A model generated the notes under the pieces. That model made no database searches and was not told where the DNA came from. It saw only the letters and a program-made list of their open reading frames with translations. Made by a program: the position numbers and the translations under genes. From Candidatus Roizmanbacteria bacterium (GTDB lineage Bacteria; Patescibacteriota; Microgenomatia; UBA1406; GWC2-37-13), in contig JACRPE010000011.1 in NCBI GenBank assembly GCA_016214055.1, positions 793 through 64,792 on the forward strand: DNA of 64,000 nt. The letters are read 5' to 3'. Shown piece after piece: positions 21,222 through 63,474 of the stretch. The stretch's first letter is position 1, and the number at the start of each line of letters is the position of its first letter.

Positions 21222-21283
21222 TCCCCTAAACGCAAAAAGTCCCTTGCGGGACTTTCTACCGACCGGGGACACCCCGATCCAAT
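21222..21283 (-). ncRNA. Candidate small RNA S3 (promoter + hairpins + T-run on the minus strand)
   Basis: The minus strand reads TTGACA-N13-TATAAT-GGAGTCATTGGATCGGGGTGTCCCCGGTCGGTAGAAAGTCCCGCAAGGGACTTTTTGCGTTT. The hairpin aaagtccc-gcaa-gggacttt is followed by T's. Confidence 0.3.
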
Positions 21284-21392
21284 GACTCCATTATACTATG
21301 TATATCATTGTCAAATGAAGAATTTTTTTAAACCTAAAAAATGATTCATAATTATTGCTTGTTATGAGGTGATAGAATAGAAAGAACAACTT

Positions 21393-51271: not shown

Positions 51272-52878
51272 CAAAAAAAATATTCCTCATCCTGACCATA
51301 ATTGGCGCGATATCCGTTTTATTTTCAGTTGTGCAAAGGACCCCCAGTCCTCCCTGCTTCAATGCGGATGAGGCATCATTCGGTTATAACGCCTATTCAA
51401 TATTAAAAACCGGTAAGGATGAGTACGGAACCCTTCTTCCCCTTCGTCTCAAATCTTTCGGAGACTATAAACTCCCCCTTTACACCTACCTTTCGGTGCC
51501 TTTTATTGCGGTATTGGGGTTGAATGAATTCGGAACCCGTGCGCTCAACGTATTTCTTTCCTTTCTTCTTCCTTTTGCCGTTTATCTCTTGGCATTTCAG
51601 CTTTTCAAGAGTAAACGCGCGGGTATAATCGCCGCATTCTTAACGAGTGTTTCGCTTGGGTTCCATATTATCAGCCGTCACGCGCATGAGGCATACTTGG
51701 CAACTTTTTTAACCACGCTTACGTGTTATTTTCTCATTAAAACGCTTCATGGCAGGAGTCTGAGAAATATGTTGCTGCTTGCAACATCATCCGTCCTTCT
51801 TCTTTTCAGCTATCACCCGGGGCGCCTCTTCATCCTTTTCTTCCTTGGATTTGCATTTGTATACTCCTTCATTCAGAAACAAAAAAACATCGCCGTCCCT
51901 CTTCTCTTATTTGTTGCGCTCGTCCTATTCAGCTTAACGGATCTGGCCTATAATCCAACCCGTCTGAAAAATCTGGCCTTTTTCAATAATGCCGGCTTTC
52001 AGTTGAAAATACAGGAATTAAAGACGGAGGGTGGGATACGATATTTATACAACCCTCTCTTTGTAGGGTTGAAGGAAATAACCCTAGACCACCTGACCTA
52101 TTTCTCTCCCCAATTCCTCATTCAGAACGGAGATGAGAACAACCGGTTCGGCTTCCCGGGGATGTCTATTCTCACTCCCCTTGAGTATATTTTCTTTTTT
52201 GTCGGTCTGTACTTTATATTTAAAAATAATGAGAAATGGCGGTGGTTTTTTCTGCTTCTATTAATCGTGTCCCCGCTCTCAGCATCCCTTTCCTGGTCAA
52301 AGGAGTCCCTCACCCGGTCTCTCTTTCTCCTTATTCCCATTATCATTGCGGCTTCATATGGATTAAGCTCATCGTTGTATCAAGTCAAGAAACATTATCG
52401 CATATTGTATGTATTCTTCATAATTGCCATAGGCGGATTTTTCCTCATCATTTCATGGGACTATTATTTATTTCACTATCCGAAACAAAAAACAACCATC
52501 CACTCATGGCAATGCGGATATGGCGAAGTGGGAACTTATGTAGAAGAAAATTACCAAAAATACTCGCATTTTTATATATCAAAAGATATTGGTATGCCTT
52601 ATATCTTTATGCTTTTCTATCTGAAATATGACCCTGAGACGTATCAAAGACAGGCCATACTCACTGCGCCCGATGAATACGGTTTCGGACAGGTTGAGAA
52701 ATTTGATAAGTTCATATTTGAATTCAAATGGCCGAAAGATCTGCAAAAAAACTCAGTCCTCATCGGTTCGATTGACGATTTCAAGAATATTCCTGAACAG
52801 TATAAAGTTGATCCGGGCAAATTAAAGTCAATCAAGAATTACAGCGAGACGATGTTTCAGATATATGAGGGAAATTAA
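51268..52878 (+). CDS. ArnT/PMT-family glycosyltransferase
   Basis: CFNADEASFGYNAYSILKTGKDEYGTLLPL after TM1, 536-aa polytopic protein. Confidence 0.7.
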   Translation: MTKKIFLILTIIGAISVLFSVVQRTPSPPCFNADEASFGYNAYSILKTGKDEYGTLLPLRLKSFGDYKLPLYTYLSVPFIAVLGLNEFGTRALNVFLSFLLPFAVYLLAFQLFKSKRAGIIAAFLTSVSLGFHIISRHAHEAYLATFLTTLTCYFLIKTLHGRSLRNMLLLATSSVLLLFSYHPGRLFILFFLGFAFVYSFIQKQKNIAVPLLLFVALVLFSLTDLAYNPTRLKNLAFFNNAGFQLKIQELKTEGGIRYLYNPLFVGLKEITLDHLTYFSPQFLIQNGDENNRFGFPGMSILTPLEYIFFFVGLYFIFKNNEKWRWFFLLLLIVSPLSASLSWSKESLTRSLFLLIPIIIAASYGLSSSLYQVKKHYRILYVFFIIAIGGFFLIISWDYYLFHYPKQKTTIHSWQCGYGEVGTYVEENYQKYSHFYISKDIGMPYIFMLFYLKYDPETYQRQAILTAPDEYGFGQVEKFDKFIFEFKWPKDLQKNSVLIGSIDDFKNIPEQYKVDPGKLKSIKNYSETMFQIYEGN

Positions 52879-53540
52879 CTGAGGAAGAACGTGAGGCTGA
52901 ACGTATAAAACGCATGGATGATGATGGGAAGGAGGAGGCTTCTTCGTTGCAAATATAAAACAGATACAACTACGCTGAGCGCAATATCGGTCATCATAAC
53001 CTGGAGTATCACCGTCCCCGTCATGTGTTGACTGGTAAAGAGGATAGGAATATGGAGAAAGAAAAATAAAAGACTGGAAAGAGCTATCGATTTTAACGCA
53101 TTTTTTGATTCCTCAAAGAGCCGTTTCAGTACAAACCCCCTTGATAATATCTCCTCACTTACACTGGTGGCAAAGGCAACGATAAAAACAATAAGCGTCT
53201 GCGGTTGAAATAACTTGCTCAATTGTGCGAATGAGAATCCCTGTTTGAGCATGATACCGATATATCCGACGGCAAAAAAAGCAACACCCAACCCCACTCC
53301 CCATAACAAGTCTGATATGAGCGTTTTTTTATGCAGATCAACCTCATGAAAAAACGACTTCTTTTCAATCTTTTTTATATACCAGAAAACGGGCAGGATA
53401 AAGAAGATGGGCTTTATCAGGAACTCATCAAGCCATACGGGGAGGCTTGTCCCGAAATTTGCCCGGTAGATGCTCCAGAGAATCAGAATAATGGCCCACA
53501 CATTGAGAGATTTTTGAAGTGGAGAAACATTTTCTTTCAT
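52875..53540 (-). CDS. CPBP (CAAX) family intramembrane metalloprotease
   Basis: SEEILSRGF (EExxxR) and FFFLH / IIHAFYTF histidine motifs in a polytopic 221-aa protein. Confidence 0.75.
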   Translation of the reverse strand: MKENVSPLQKSLNVWAIILILWSIYRANFGTSLPVWLDEFLIKPIFFILPVFWYIKKIEKKSFFHEVDLHKKTLISDLLWGVGLGVAFFAVGYIGIMLKQGFSFAQLSKLFQPQTLIVFIVAFATSVSEEILSRGFVLKRLFEESKNALKSIALSSLLFFFLHIPILFTSQHMTGTVILQVMMTDIALSVVVSVLYLQRRSLLLPIIIHAFYTFSLTFFLS

Positions 53541-53579: not shown

Positions 53580-53816
53580 TCAGACCCCATAGAGCAAAAA
53601 ACTCATGGTGATTTTAAGTGAGCGGGCAATTTTATGAAGCACGCGGACGGTTGGATTCACTTTTCCCTGTTCTATGCGGGCATAATAGGTCCGGTCGATG
53701 TGCGCCCGGTCCGACATATCTTCCTGGGACAGTTTCTGTCCCTTACGGATGGTAATAATTCTCAAACCGAGTCTTCGGTAAAAGAAGTCACCGTTCATAA
53801 TGAAAAAAACATACAA
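53580..53816 (-). CDS. XRE-family HTH regulator
   Basis: LGLRIITIRKGQKLSQEDMSDRAHIDRTYYARIEQGKVNPTV. Confidence 0.7.
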   Translation of the reverse strand: MYVFFIMNGDFFYRRLGLRIITIRKGQKLSQEDMSDRAHIDRTYYARIEQGKVNPTVRVLHKIARSLKITMSFLLYGV

Positions 53817-53963
53817 TATCGTGCAGATACTTGTCTAATGCTTATACACAACAAAAGTGGTATTTTAGCCTATTATAAAAAGATTTTTTTGACGATAGTA
53901 CTTTTACCTCAACGAGCCTGAAAAACTATTACTTTTGTTATTTCTTATTTTGCATGAATGAAA

Positions 53964-54036
53964 AGTACCTTCTCCTTTTTAATCCTTTCCTAACAACCTA
54001 AACCAACCATTTTGTTGTCTATATGCGACTGACAAA
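53964..54036 (+). repeat. Cassette 5' module U1
   Basis: agtaccttctcctttttaatcctttcctaacaacctaaaccaaccattttgttgtctatatgcgactgacaaa. A near-identical copy lies at 55324-55395. Confidence 0.8.
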
Positions 54037-54063
54037 TATTTTTCTTCATATTAGTATGTCTGC

Positions 54064-55035
54064 ATGAAAGAAAAAATAGTCATTTATAAAACAAATCATA
54101 ACGATATTGAACTGAAGGTTCAGTTTGAAGAAGAAACCGTTTGGCTCAGGCAAGATCAAATAGCTAAACTGTTTGGTAAGGAACGTTCAGTAATCACGAG
54201 GCATATCAGTGGTATTTTTAAAGACAAGGAGGTGGATAAAAGAAGCAATGTGCACTTTTTGCACATTGCTCATTCCGACAGACCTGTAGCTTTTTATAGT
54301 TTGGATGTAATTTTAGCTGTAGGCTATAGAACAAACTCATCTAGAGCTATCGATTTTAGAAAATGGGTAACACGCGTATTAAAAGACCATTTATTCAAGG
54401 GCTACACCATCAACGAAAAGCGCCTCCTGCAGGCAACAAATAACCTCAACGATTTACAAAGCGCCATCTCATTTTTGCAGGAAAAAGCAAAACACACCCT
54501 GCTAACCGGTCAGGAACAGCAAATTCTTTCCCTTCTTGCCGATTACTCAAAAACACTAACTCTGTTGGAACAATATGATAAAGATAAACTATCGTTGTCC
54601 CATAAAGGAAGGGGTACGTTTATATTGCAGTACAAAACTGCATATTCGGTGATTGGAGAGTTGAAAAAAGTATTATTTGTTAAAAAAGAAGCAAGCAGTA
54701 TCTTCGGGCAAGAGTATGAAGACAAATTCAAAGCAATTCTGGGAAACATCCGTCAAACCTTCGGCGGAAAGGAGCTCTATCCTTCGCTTGAGGAAAAAGC
54801 TGCGCACCTTCTGTATTTTGTCATAAAAGATCACTCCTTTGTAGACGGCAACAAACGTATAGGATCATTCCTGTTTATATATTTTCTCGACAGAAATAAT
54901 TATCTTTACAAACAAAATAGGGAAAAGAAAATAAATGACAATGCCTTAACCGCCCTCTCTCTTCTTATCGCCATAAGCAATCCGAAAGAAAAAGATACGA
55001 TGATAAAAATCATTACTAATTTGTTAAGAGAATGA
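54064..55035 (+). CDS. RhuM-family N-domain fused to a Fic/Doc domain
   Basis: The N-terminus VWLRQDQIAKLFGKERSVITRHI..YSLDVILAVGYRTNS is RhuM-like. The C-terminal HSFVDGNKRIG fits the Fic motif HxFx(D/E)GN(G/K)R. Confidence 0.8.
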   Translation: MKEKIVIYKTNHNDIELKVQFEEETVWLRQDQIAKLFGKERSVITRHISGIFKDKEVDKRSNVHFLHIAHSDRPVAFYSLDVILAVGYRTNSSRAIDFRKWVTRVLKDHLFKGYTINEKRLLQATNNLNDLQSAISFLQEKAKHTLLTGQEQQILSLLADYSKTLTLLEQYDKDKLSLSHKGRGTFILQYKTAYSVIGELKKVLFVKKEASSIFGQEYEDKFKAILGNIRQTFGGKELYPSLEEKAAHLLYFVIKDHSFVDGNKRIGSFLFIYFLDRNNYLYKQNREKKINDNALTALSLLIAISNPKEKDTMIKIITNLLRE

Positions 55036-55130
55036 CAAATGACAAAGATTCAAATCACACAAGTCAAGTTAAAGTAACAGATCCTAAAATTCTCAAAATC
55101 GAGCCCGTGACTGGAGTTTGGAATTTAATC

Positions 55131-55195
55131 CAAATAAAAATGGGAGGCGTCGCTCATAAGCGCGTAGCTTACGGGTCGTGTTCTCCCTGATGATT
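55131..55195 (-). ncRNA. Candidate small RNA S1, convergent with the Fic gene
   Basis: The minus strand reads TTGACA-N12-(TGG)TATAAT, then GGGGGTAATCATCAGGGAGAACACGACCCGTAAGCTACGCGCTTATGAGCGACGCCTCCC, then ATTTTTATTT (stem gggag../..ctccc plus T-run). Confidence 0.3.
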
Positions 55196-55260
55196 ACCCC
55201 CATTATACCACTTTCCCCCTGTCAAGGGATTTAATTATTTAATTATTTGTAATTGATTTG
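55167..55260 (+). repeat. Cassette 3' module D1
   Basis: cttacggg...ccattataccactttccccctgtcaagggattta...attatttgtaattgatttg. Second copy at 55865-55953. Confidence 0.75.
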
Positions 55261-55323
55261 CTTTGCCCCTCGTAGTCCTCCGATTCGGAGGACGAAGTGG
55301 GGTGGATTTATCATTAATGGAAG

Positions 55324-55395
55324 AGTACCTTCTCCTTTTTAATCCTTTCCTGACAGCCTAAAAACCCATTTTGTTGTCTATATGCGACTGACAAA
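55324..55395 (+). repeat. Cassette 5' module U2
   Basis: agtaccttctcctttttaatcctttcctgacagcctaaaaacccattttgttgtctatatgcgactgacaaa. Confidence 0.8.
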
Positions 55396-55404
55396 CTGAA
55401 TAGG

Positions 55405-55836
55405 TTGAAGTATTCTATATGGAATTCAAAAAATTATATGTTGCCATTCTATAAAGACTTTACAAAGTGGTTAACTCTTAAACCAAAGCTTGATCAGCTT
55501 GTATCTTATCCAAAATTCCAAGAAGGTGATATATGGTGGTGTCACATCGGCGCAAATGTTGGTCATGAAGAATGCGGAAAAGGAAATAGCTTTTTAAGAC
55601 CAATTATTATCCTCAAAAAATTCAACCACAGGATTTTCTTTGGATTACCAACCAGTTCTAAATTAAAAGAGTCAATATTTTATAGACCAATCATGATTAA
55701 GGGGAAGCAGGTATCTGTTCTCATGTCTCAAATGAGACTGTTTGACGTGAAACGACTATATTATAAACAGGGAAAAATTGGAGATGTAGAATTGCTCAAA
55801 CTCAAGAAAGATTTTGTGAAACTCCTCTTAAAATAG
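55405..55836 (+). CDS. PemK/MazF-family toxin-like protein
   Basis: FQEGDIWWCHIGANVGHEECGKGNSFLRPIIILKK..FGLPTSS. The track start is TTG, and the real start may be an ATG a few codons in. Confidence 0.65.
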   Translation: MKYSIWNSKNYMLPFYKDFTKWLTLKPKLDQLVSYPKFQEGDIWWCHIGANVGHEECGKGNSFLRPIIILKKFNHRIFFGLPTSSKLKESIFYRPIMIKGKQVSVLMSQMRLFDVKRLYYKQGKIGDVELLKLKKDFVKLLLK

Positions 55837-55879
55837 TAACCCCGCTGTCTCCAGCGGGTCGTCCCTTACGGGAATTTGT
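55832..55879 (-). ncRNA. Candidate small RNA S2, convergent with and abutting the PemK stop codon
   Basis: The minus strand reads TTGACA-N13-(TGG)TATAAT-GGAGGTACAAATTCCCGTAAGGGACGACCCGCTGGAGACAGCGGGGTTACTATTTT. It shares ACGACCCG and CCCGTAAG with S1. Confidence 0.3.
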
Positions 55880-55953
55880 ACCTCCATTATACCACCTTTC
55901 CTCCTGTCAAGGGATTTATTTTTTTATTTATTTGATTATTTGTAATTGATTTG
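55865..55953 (+). repeat. Cassette 3' module D2
   Basis: cttacggg...ccattataccacctttcctcctgtcaagggattta...attatttgtaattgatttg. Confidence 0.75.
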
Positions 55954-56147
55954 TCATTTGTGAATTTGTTTATTTGTCATTGCTTGTTTTAGAGGGTACC
56001 TTCTTCTTTTTTTCCTGTCCCTCCGCCCCAAACTCCCACAATTGTTGCATATATACTACAAAAGTACTAAACTGGACTATATTAAGGCCCTTTTTTTGAT
56101 GAATATAGTAATAATTCTCTTATTAATTCCTTTTTTATTAATACTTC

Positions 56148-57266
56148 ATGAATAAACAAAGAAAAATATATTTCGTAATGGCTGGTGGAGGCCATGAAAC
56201 CGACAAGCATTATTACGATACCATTAAAAATCGCCGGTCGGTTAATGAATTTGGTAAATACTTAAAATCTGATGAGGTTACCATATTGGAGAGTTATTCA
56301 CATGGGAGGCCATATGCAGTTTGGGGTGCGGTTCCAGGACCAAGCAATATCAGAAATTGGGAAACAATGAATGAGGGCGATTATGTATTGGTTTACCGTC
56401 AGGGAAAAATTATCCTTGCAGCTGAAATTGCAATGAAAGTGAGAAATCCTGAGTTGGCAAACTATTTTTGGCAGAAAGATACCGATGGAAAAACCTGGGA
56501 GTTTATTTATTTTATGATCAATGACACCCCATTTAATGTCGGTATAGAAAAACTTAACAGTTATCTTGGCTATGAAGTAAATTATCACCCCCAGGGCTTT
56601 ATGGCAATAAAACAGGATAAAGTCGATTATCTTTTATCAGCTTATGGCGATTTGATATCTCTCTTAAAAAAACTTAATGAAGGACAGGAAATAGAAAAAA
56701 TTGAATTTGAGAAAAAGAAAATAGTTAATGAAATACTTGATGATCGTATCGAAAATGCACCAACTGAGCACACGGAAATTCAATGGCGTCTTATTAGATT
56801 GGGTAACCGATCAAATTTTGATGTTTGGGTCCCTATAGCAGATCAATCTAAGGAGTTTAACGGTAATAAATTTAGAGATCATGTTATTCAAAGTTTCCAG
56901 GAATCAATCGACGTACCAACCTATATTAAAAATATTGATACAGTATGGAAGCTTGGATATAGTATAAAATCAGCTTTTGAAATAGAACATTCTACTAGTA
57001 TATATTCAGGAATACTCAGATTATCAGACCTTAGAGCCTTAACCCCAAATTCAACCTATCCCCTTTTTATAGTCGCGAACCGCGATAGAAAGAATAAGGT
57101 TTTTGAACAATTACGAAGACCCACCTTTTCAAATGACTATCTTGCGCTTGACCGGGCTGTAAAATACCTTTCATATGATAAAGTCCGAAGCCTGGACGAA
57201 AGTCTAAAAGAAAAACAGACAGGCTTTAATATTGATTGGCTCATTAAAGAAGCTGAATCAGTATAA
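56148..57266 (+). CDS. Two-domain protein: PUA-like (EVE/ASCH-type?) N-terminus + PD-(D/E)xK-like C-terminus; candidate modification-dependent nuclease
   Basis: The N-terminus has YAVWGAVPGPSNIRNWETMNEGDYVLVYRQGKIILAAEI. The C-terminus has EHTEIQWRLIRLGNRSNFDVWVP..IDTVWKLGYSIKSAFEIEHSTSIYSGILRLSDL (a D...D/E-x-E nuclease-like pattern). The assignment is tentative. Confidence 0.4.
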   Translation: MNKQRKIYFVMAGGGHETDKHYYDTIKNRRSVNEFGKYLKSDEVTILESYSHGRPYAVWGAVPGPSNIRNWETMNEGDYVLVYRQGKIILAAEIAMKVRNPELANYFWQKDTDGKTWEFIYFMINDTPFNVGIEKLNSYLGYEVNYHPQGFMAIKQDKVDYLLSAYGDLISLLKKLNEGQEIEKIEFEKKKIVNEILDDRIENAPTEHTEIQWRLIRLGNRSNFDVWVPIADQSKEFNGNKFRDHVIQSFQESIDVPTYIKNIDTVWKLGYSIKSAFEIEHSTSIYSGILRLSDLRALTPNSTYPLFIVANRDRKNKVFEQLRRPTFSNDYLALDRAVKYLSYDKVRSLDESLKEKQTGFNIDWLIKEAESV

Positions 57267-63193: not shown

Positions 63194-63406
63194 TTAAAAT
63201 TTAAAGGTCTGTTTCACAAACTTGAACTTCGTTTTTACTATTTTCAGCTGTTCCTCAAGTACCTTAAACATTTTATTCACATCTTCTTCATTATAATCGT
63301 AATAACTTTTATTGGAAAGATTGCTTAGAATTCTAATTTGATTGAGAAGATTATTAACTCTTTTGGTAGCAATTCGCTTAAAATGTGATCGTCTGTCCTC
63401 TTCCAT
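63194..63406 (-). CDS. Small helical protein A (70 aa), first gene of the cluster
   Basis: ORF directly behind a TTGACT-N17-TATCAT promoter. KRIATKRVNNLLNQIRILSNLSNKSYYDYNEEDVNKMF. Confidence 0.5.
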   Translation of the reverse strand: MEEDRRSHFKRIATKRVNNLLNQIRILSNLSNKSYYDYNEEDVNKMFKVLEEQLKIVKTKFKFVKQTFKF

Positions 63407-63412
63407 ATTTAA

Positions 63413-63441
63413 ATGATAGTATATATATACAATAAAGTCAA
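63413..63441 (-). promoter_or_regulatory. Sigma70-like promoter of the A-B-C-D-M-R cluster (leaderless)
   Basis: The minus strand reads TTGACT-N17-TATCAT-ttaaat-ATG, so the ATG is 6 nt after the -10 box. Confidence 0.45.
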
Positions 63442-63443
63442 TG

Positions 63444-63474
63444 GGTTATATAACCTATTTAATAGGTTATATAA
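63444..63474. promoter_or_regulatory. Operator-like palindrome GGTTATATAACC plus a half-site repeat
   Basis: A perfect 12-nt palindrome at 63444-63455 and GGTTATATAA again at 63465-63474, immediately upstream of the -35 box. Confidence 0.35.

Follow-up and report, generated by a model that had tools for sequence, protein, structure and literature searches.

Among the closest described counterparts of the locus examined here are the C proteins associated with restriction-modification (R-M) systems, such as C.PvuII, C.AhdI and C.Esp1396I. As a rule their genes are leaderless and have the operator a fixed 17-18 nt from the start codon, and the authors of a survey of these proteins asked whether C proteins outside R-M systems control other toxic genes (PMC2632904). 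A second counterpart is provided by reused or 'mobile' promoters, which are highly similar promoters that stand before non-homologous genes (Nijveen, Matus-Garcia & van Passel 2012, PMC3575422). The locus lies in a 64,000-nt stretch, hereafter the window, of the genome of an uncultivated, ultra-small Candidatus Roizmanbacteria bacterium (assembly GCA_016214055.1, contig JACRPE010000011.1, positions 793 to 64,792 of the forward strand). In this window, a RhuM-Fic gene and a PemK/MazF-like gene are each preceded by a copy of one non-coding module, U, and followed by a copy of another, D, next to the gene of a small XRE-type helix-turn-helix (HTH) protein. The reading preferred here, with a probability of roughly 0.55, is that of a plug-in gene island, in which U and D would frame cassettes that obey one shared switch and are exchanged by homologous recombination, and which would not be an integron. 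As a combination of known kinds, it would be a C-protein-like regulon and a reused promoter inside a defence-island hot spot.

The genome that contains the window (G000) is 1.2 Mb long, 97% complete and divided into 26 contigs, with the window on contig C10; other genomes, contigs and loci are referred to by G, C and L numbers, and the features of the locus are collected in Table 1. An initial annotation had described two near-identical U copies ending in TTGTC-N11-GACAA with a TGACAA box resembling a -35 element, and both the copies and the motifs are present as described. U1 (53960-54036) and U2 (55320-55395) are 93% identical over 73 nt by BLAST, in two matching blocks, one of 43 nt at 93% and another, the last 30 nt, at 100%; U2 is the sole other match to U1 in the whole genome (E=1.6e-25). 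The degenerate copy reported ahead of the next open reading frame (ORF) is also real. It (U3, 55993-56060) is 89% identical in its first 19 nt and has the box AATTGTTGCATATATACTACAAAAGT, its -35 is gone, and the next start codon lies 85 nt further on. D1 and D2 share a core of about 90 nt (genome-wide E-value 8e-16), formed by the blocks 55195-55249 / 55879-55934, 89% identical with one gap, and 55230-55260 / 55923-55953, 94% identical. The core of the D modules stands as first proposed, while the 5' ends then assigned to them (55167-55194 / 55865-55878) have only CGGGTCGT in common.

The same modules surround other genes in related bacteria. When the array region was compared by BLAST with 60 relatives, and the matching loci were mapped for modules and ORFs, U and D copies were found in five genomes of the same genus (G001, G002, G005, G007 and G012). 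In three or four genomes of the genus and in one metagenome contig, they frame other genes, namely those for NYN, 23S-IVP four-helix-bundle, RhuM, HigBA and DUF3800 proteins, in an order that varies from genome to genome. In G002 and G007, the array occupies the same site, beside the XRE gene and its neighbour, which encodes a CAAX/CPBP protease. At this XRE-adjacent site, the same U and a D of the same type (A) flank Fic in the window's genome and NYN in G002. In the metagenome contig L101, NYN takes the place of PemK behind the same junction of D1, spacer and U. The earlier proposal of [U]-gene-[D] as an exchangeable unit is thereby supported. Type-A D is also found in L101, G001 and G012; type B follows PemK in G000 and G001 and RhuM in G007, and type C comes after the four-helix-bundle gene of G002 and after that of G007. 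A metagenome scan with the genus-type 5' half of U matched one contig only.

The XRE and CAAX genes form a conserved predicted operon, whose order is kept in G002, G003, G004, G007, G093 and G094. In G003 and G004, which belong to the same genus, dnaG, rpoD, XRE and CAAX are contiguous and the array is absent (L102/L103). In the window's genome, dnaG and rpoD stand at the end of contig C8 (95586-99780), followed by a further Fic-type gene; the island that comprises the array, the R-M genes and the PADLOC defence candidate PDC-M33 probably lies between rpoD and XRE, across the assembly gap between C8 and C10. To the right of the array, the 372-aa gene that follows U3 and vsr make up a conserved flank, and in G005 the homologue of this gene and vsr come after a U-box/four-helix-bundle cassette (L032). 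Judging from these gene orders, a defence/toxin island adjoins the conserved XRE-CAAX operon, and the array forms its variable edge. As in defence-island hot spots, a variable block with R-M, PDC-S23, PDC-S05, PDC-M33 and toxin-antitoxin (TA) genes adjoins conserved genes and is missing from G003 and G004; unlike in the usual defence islands, single genes are framed by shared regulatory modules and are not merely side by side.

The U module has the appearance of a promoter with a built-in operator. Aligned copies consist of an invariant box, TTTTGTTGTCTATATGCGACTGACAA, about 10 variable bases, a TAGTAT / TATAGT-like hexamer and the start codon. The centre of the box is a 16-bp dyad, GTWGNNTATAWGCGAC, that abuts the CTGACA -35; it varies as GCATATATGC, GGTTATAAGC or GGTTATAACC, and in one copy all 16 bases form a perfect dyad, GTAGCATATATGCTAC. 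Conservation extends for about 45 nt upstream of the box (..TcCTTTcc..AACAAyCTAAA..), and folding of U gave no structure beyond chance (z about 0). When 223 genomes of the order were searched by pattern, 11 of them, from 5 genera, had the box, against 0 matches for the reversed pattern that served as control, and a scan of about 186,000 species genomes returned 46 stretches with a U box, nearly all labelled Roizmanbacteria. IMG/VR, scanned separately, gave 0 matches to the U box, on which ground a phage origin of U was rejected.

An ORF begins within 160 nt of 41 of the 49 distinct U boxes, and in 25 of those the start codon lies 27-33 nt after the box (mode 28), that is, about 34 nt past the end of the dyad; a TATAGT / TATAAT / TAGTAT-like hexamer sits 6-8 nt ahead of it. 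With CTGACA taken as the -35, there is a 17-nt spacer, a weak -10-like hexamer and the A of the ATG at about +1, and consequently the mRNAs are predicted to be leaderless. Here and throughout, promoters are predictions from hexamers and their spacing, not measurements. Across the window's genome, promoters mostly have an extended -10 (TGnTATAAT, often followed by GG) with no clear -35, and many start codons lie 5-9 nt past a -10, for which reason leaderless mRNAs would seem to be common.

The boxes precede at least 15 unrelated protein families, which include ComM (4), DprA, NYN (5), 23S_rRNA_IVP (4-5), PemK (2; a homologue stands behind a box in G137, at L073), RhuM-Fic (2), Gp49/HigB, TrpR-like proteins (5), secreted proteins with an LTD domain and small membrane proteins, among others. 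The comM genes of four genomes and the dprA gene of one stand directly behind a U box in other Roizmanbacteria genera (L037, L059, L070, L100, L074). In the window's genome, a position weight matrix (PWM) scan, with 0 matches in the shuffled genome as control, found further U-like boxes at C9:3509, at C18:631 and before the XRE gene. The first of these precedes a decayed NYN gene with a stop after 15 codons, and the second a GIY-YIG gene, behind hairpins resembling repetitive extragenic palindromes (REPs). On this evidence, U is a Roizmanbacteria-wide module of about 75 nt that would serve as a promoter with its operator included. Like mobile promoters, it stands nearly unchanged before non-homologous genes, both within a genome and across genera; unlike them, it includes an operator, fixes a predicted leaderless start and, in one clade, is paired with a reused 3' module, D.

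The neighbouring XRE protein is the best candidate for the regulator of U, as a U-like box precedes all 11 of its close homologues examined, in 9 genomes (G000, G002, G003, G004, G007, G093 and G094, with two each in G107 and G137). Where it was counted (G000, G003, G004, G094), the end of the box lies 28-32 nt from the XRE ATG, and in three genomes the XRE gene is directly beside the array. The box of the window's own XRE gene has a PWM score of 27.2 and coincides with a promoter scan match and an inverted repeat (I1); its U-like module shows a long inverted pairing with the 5' half of U1, and the XRE-Fic intergenic region consists of two U modules back to back. The protein also matches PADLOC profiles for HTH_VI (E=7e-13), an R-M control protein (E=7e-12) and CapH. 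Its orthologues begin MNGDFF or MQGDFF, and the frame, first given as 53580-53816, most likely begins at ATG 53798 (72 aa). Most likely, then, XRE is an autoregulated HTH protein with the dyad as its operator. Given a box at a fixed distance from many unrelated genes and from every close XRE homologue examined, the earlier idea of a shared regulon is supported.

Several traits of this candidate pair recall the C proteins and their C-boxes (PMC2632904): a small XRE-type HTH protein with an operator in its own promoter, a palindrome that adjoins or overlaps the -35 of a weak promoter, a fixed distance between operator and start codon, predicted leaderless transcripts and, by analogy, control over genes toxic to the cell. 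Unlike in a C-R operon, one operator type serves many single-gene cassettes as well as some core-type genes, and the gene after XRE encodes a CAAX/CPBP protease and not a nuclease. In addition, there is one clear dyad per U promoter.

The second module, D, had its strongest feature overlooked in the initial annotation. Read on the minus strand, each copy presents an AT-rich tract, TTGACA, 12-13 nt, TGgTATAATGG, a hairpin region of 45-65 nt and a T-run that abuts or overlaps the stop codon of the cassette. This opposite-strand promoter has the TGnTATAAT form that is usual for strong promoters of this genome, for instance at tRNA genes, and four unrelated types of hairpin (A-D) stand behind it. 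There are about 10 copies in all, restricted to G000, G001, G002 and G007 apart from one in G012; a scan with a D-promoter pattern, the gap of which was one base too narrow for D1, matched G000, G002 and G007 only. Rfam gave only chance-level matches on D (mir-14, and Chlorobi-1 at 17.5 bits, where the gathering score is 50). From this layout, D is probably a clade-specific insulator or cis-antisense unit.

In the type I TA pairs txpA/RatA and bsrG/SR4 of Bacillus subtilis, cis-antisense RNAs overlap the 3' end of the mRNA of the toxin, which is a small membrane peptide. D would resemble them in being a small RNA gene that converges on a toxin gene and has a strong promoter of its own and a terminator near the stop codon. 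Unlike in those pairs, the toxins are Fic/Doc and PemK enzymes, non-toxin genes carry D as well, and the predicted overlap is minimal.

Under the preferred reading, each cassette would be a self-contained transcription unit, with a start codon 6-7 nt past the weak -10 of U. A dimeric HTH protein, most likely the adjacent 72-aa XRE, would bind the dyad of U; as XRE has a U variant of its own, it would regulate itself, and one regulator would switch all the cassettes. The minus-strand promoter of D, its hairpin RNA of 45-65 nt and its intrinsic terminator would block read-through between cassettes, and the RNA could act as a short cis-antisense to the 3' end of the cassette mRNA. The joint between cassettes repeats one order, namely the leftward putative RNA gene of D, the AT-rich spacer, the distal half of U, the operator and the rightward U promoter, and it amounts to about 230 nt of shared homology that flank every gene on each side. 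Through U and D, arrays could gain, lose and swap genes by homologous recombination, for instance after DNA uptake; since all cassettes share both modules, this would be possible without a dedicated site-specific recombinase. The presence of comM and dprA in this lineage makes such exchange plausible.

A wider version of this proposal is offered only tentatively and is rather doubtful. It holds that a portable U places toxin, defence and DNA-uptake genes (comM, dprA) under one C-protein-like XRE, acting as repressor or activator, throughout the lineage, that the CAAX/CPBP protease could inactivate XRE on an envelope signal, that the clade-specific D insulates the cassettes and that homologous recombination, following natural transformation, shuffles these. 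If true, this 'plug-and-play' system would correspond in function to an integron that has no integrase. Targeted full-text literature searches found no promoter/operator motif, cassette array or such regulon described for these bacteria, and no integron-like array for the candidate phyla radiation. U would thus provide a first defined regulon here, as a sharply delimited and testable promoter-operator with predicted leaderless starts and a named candidate regulator. Tiny genomes could in this way add or drop toxin and defence genes without dedicated recombinases, with the regulatory flanks as portable homology. The joining of cassettes with comM and dprA hints at a common control of DNA uptake and self-protection, and U and XRE could serve as a native expression switch in the emerging genetics of Patescibacteria.

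A number of observations weigh against the plug-in reading, and some of them lead directly to alternatives. To begin with, not every cassette is complete: RhuM in G007 lacks a U, U3 is decayed, and HigBA in G002:C155 has a truncated D only. The placement of the island, moreover, depends on a presumed join between C8 and C10. As to the regulator, the dyad ends about 34 nt before the start codon, and not 17-18 nt as in typical C-boxes. In addition, G003 and G004 keep the XRE gene with its own box and have no other box within 3 mismatches, so that XRE could be autoregulated only and another factor could bind U. Finally, in five genomes a TrpR-like gene has a U box of its own.

The last two of these points would be accommodated if U were a regulon promoter with some other regulator, and XRE just one more member of the regulon. 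For a competence-type regulon, this factor could be an activator or an alternative sigma, in keeping with the comM and dprA genes behind U boxes and with the conservation upstream of the dyad, which is as seen in activator-dependent promoters; it could also be the TrpR-like protein. Nevertheless, the box keeps the same geometry at all 11 close XRE homologues, XRE adjoins the array in three genomes, the comM and dprA genes of the window's genome have no box above the PWM cut-off, and no TrpR-like member was seen beside the arrays. This alternative is therefore regarded as unlikely.

Other adverse observations concern D. Its TTGACA and its -10 are only 12-13 nt apart, or 15 in one copy, and given that the -35 spacing elsewhere in this genome is 17-18 nt, the TTGACA does not fit as a standard -35. 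The predicted RNA overlaps little beyond the stop codon and the 3' untranslated region, and the D1, D2 and S3 RNAs gave no pairing signal against the 5' ends of the cassettes and the U modules (z -1.7 to +1.5). Perhaps, then, D is a mere 3' end or terminator of the cassette mRNA, or the decayed promoter of a lost gene, with no functional RNA on the minus strand. The hexamer spacing, abnormal for sigma-70, and the small number of copies would agree with this, as would the RNA part, which differs among the four types and has no single sequence common to all D, and the D promoter in G002:C155 that faces a real gene, DUF3800. By contrast, in all four types it is only on the minus strand that a T-run comes after the hairpin, and only when read on that strand is a GNRA loop retained, as GUAA or GCAA. 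In diverged copies the spacer sequence has changed, yet the two hexamers persist, as does the TG of the extended -10. Furthermore, a stand-alone unit of the same build is found at 21222-21310 (minus strand), between a transporter gene and a tRNA gene and away from the cassettes; it has TTGACA, 13 nt, TATAAT, two hairpins that include CCC-GCAA-GGG, and a T-run, with no Rfam match. A D without a functional minus-strand RNA is thus considered improbable.

Cassette exchange might also be the work of an integron-like or other site-specific system, with the D-U junction as an attC-like or Xer/dif-like recombination site. Integrons hold mostly promoterless cassettes that are read from a common promoter, Pc; their attC sites are imperfect palindromes of 57-141 nt with R'' (RYYYAAC) and R' (GTTRRRY) cores, an IntI-type tyrosine recombinase with attI adjoins the array, and a cluster of attC sites without an integrase is termed CALIN. 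The resemblance noted in the initial annotation is real as far as the layout goes: the units are head to tail, mostly of a single gene, with similar non-coding joints, and their cargo of toxins and small defence genes is of a type common in integron arrays. Cassette content also varies at the same locus among close relatives (G000, G007, G002 and L101), one D breaks off at a cassette border, between its two hexamers (G002:C155), and the genome has two tyrosine recombinases (PF00589). However, the likeness does not extend to the recombination sites. Folding of the D-U junction gave no attC-type single hairpin on either strand, and the three intergenic regions contain no RYYYAAC...GTTRRRY pair. 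As the initial annotation stated, no integrase lies in this part of the window; none, IntI included, is found on contig C10, and the two recombinases are on C2 and C24. Unlike integron cassettes, each unit has a predicted regulated promoter of its own, and the joint is a divergent pair of promoters. Xer/pdif modules, for their part, are bounded by 28-bp XerC/XerD sites in alternating orientation; judged by layout and not by a dif-model score, U differs from them, since all U boxes point one way relative to their genes and lie at promoter distance. This uniform orientation, the fixed distance to the start codon and the boxes that stand at scattered sites ahead of individual core-type genes (comM, dprA, XRE) fit a promoter and not a crossover site. 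A site-specific system is therefore very improbable, and with no recombinase or recombination-site features to point elsewhere, we infer homologous recombination as the simplest route. Least credible of all, and close to negligible, is a plain local duplication of one ancestral flank with functionless hitch-hiking, because, although full copies of U and D in the window's genome are confined to this array, the modules frame other genes in other genomes and the U box is kept across genera at a fixed geometry while its flanks have diverged.

Table 1. Features of the array and its neighbourhood in the window, and order of the corresponding loci in relatives (genes called from Pfam and PADLOC profile matches; promoter and RNA parts predicted)
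Feature	Position	Strand	Details
CAAX/CPBP (Rce1-like) intramembrane protease gene	52875..53540	-	Second in XRE operon; Pfam PF02517, E=6.6e-15
XRE-type HTH regulator	53580..53798	-	72 aa from ATG 53798; Pfam HTH_3, E=1e-13
U-like module of XRE gene	53799..53890	-	Box TTTTGTTGTGTATAAGCATTAGACAA at 53831-53856; -35 TAGACA, 18 nt, -10 TATGTT, 9 nt to ATG
U1	53960..54063	+	Distal conserved half 53960-54009; box 54010-54035, dyad GTTGTCTATATGCGAC
U1 promoter			-35 CTGACA 54029-54034; 17 nt; -10 TAGTAT 54052-54057; 6 nt; ATG 54064 (predicted leaderless)
Cassette 1, RhuM N-terminal part + Fic/Doc domain	54064..55035	+	Motif HSFVDGNKR; Pfam RhuM 1.4e-17, Fic 1.1e-10
D1 (type A)	55128..55262	-	AT-rich tract, TTGACA (55225-55220), 12 nt, TGgTATAAT (-10 at 55207-55202)
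D1 RNA part (predicted)		-	~65-nt hairpin RNA GGGAG...CTCCC, then ATTTTTATTT
REP-like perfect hairpin	55263..55306	.	Inverted repeat (I8) inserted in D1-U2 spacer
U2	55320..55437	+	Box 55369-55394; -35 CTGACA 55388-55393; 17 nt; -10 TATTCT 55411-55416
Cassette 2, PemK/MazF-like gene	55438..55836	+	Pfam PF02452, E=7.8e-7; probable start ATG 55438
D2 (type B)	55833..55953	-	AT-rich tract, TTGACA (55910-55905), 13 nt, TGgTATAAT (55891-55886)
D2 RNA part (predicted)		-	Hairpins CCC-GUAA-GGG and CCCGCUG/CAGCGGG, then T-run overlapping PemK stop codon
AT-rich ATTTGT-repeat spacer, D2 to U3	55954..55992	.	Same spacer type in L101 and G002:C155
U3	55993..56147	+	Decayed U copy ahead of next ORF
Next gene, 372 aa, restriction-enzyme-like C-terminal part	56148..57266	+	PADLOC REase_II, E=5.5e-9
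vsr, HpaII-type R-M pair, PDC-M33	beyond 57266
G007:C52			PMT, CAAX, XRE, U, mosaic RhuM-Fic, 23S_rRNA_IVP four-helix-bundle gene, D type C, RhuM (PDC-S05), D type B
G002:C130			PMT, CAAX, XRE, U, NYN, D type A, U, four-helix-bundle gene, D type C
G002:C155			D type B, DUF3800 (opposite strand), D, U, HigB-HigA, truncated D, U, NYN
Metagenome contig L101			D1 of the window + its upstream flank, spacer, U, then NYN where the window has PemK

Some features of the cassettes themselves are also of note. The RhuM-Fic protein is a full-length match to PDC-S23 (393 bits). Its gene and that of G007 (L024 5461-6480) are mosaics, which share 82-85% identity over the promoter, the first ~30 nt and the C-terminal two thirds and are unalignable at the DNA level over a RhuM part of about 100 codons at the N-terminus. 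An unalignable part between matching flanks points to intragenic recombination. A small ORF that overlaps the Fic stop codon (55032-55190) was weighed as a possible antitoxin gene; no family matches it and G007 does not keep it, and it is consequently treated as non-coding. The PemK-like gene has no antitoxin gene adjoining. Beyond the end of the window, on contig C10 (66329-67348), there is a further NYN gene that is followed by a convergent promoter (TTGACA, 18 nt, TATAAT), two hairpins and a T-run, which is the same design of a gene with a back-facing putative RNA in unrelated sequence.

The spaces between modules contain repeats of other kinds. The hairpin at 55263-55306, with perfect 18-bp arms (CCCCTCGTAGTCCTCCGA / TCGGAGGACGAAGTGGGG), is missing from the otherwise identical junction of L101, and it is thus an insertion outside the module; similar hairpins occur in G006, G023, G040 and G052 and are probably a REP-like family. 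Tracts rich in ACAAAT / ATTTGT (55026-55055, 55950-55981; L024 6483-7040) form inverted copies around cassettes, and they also lead four-helix-bundle genes, fill D-U spacers and give short matches in many relatives; they may be curved DNA, sites for proteins or microhomology for recombination. In D2, a terminator scan matched 55858-55841 on the minus strand. Some likeness is seen between the 5' half of U and the D promoter (CTTTCC..CTGWCA), which is weak against the family-wide U consensus.

Finally, the HpaII-type R-M pair lies 4 kb from XRE and is under a different promoter. The first gene of the PDC-M33/R-M cluster (63386-63470, minus strand) has a predicted promoter of U-like geometry, with the dyad GGTTATATAACC, 2 nt, TTGACT, 17 nt, TATCAT, 6 nt and ATG. 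For the XRE paralogues of G137 and G107 the dyad reads GGTTATAACC, and a related pair of regulator and operator may control this cluster.

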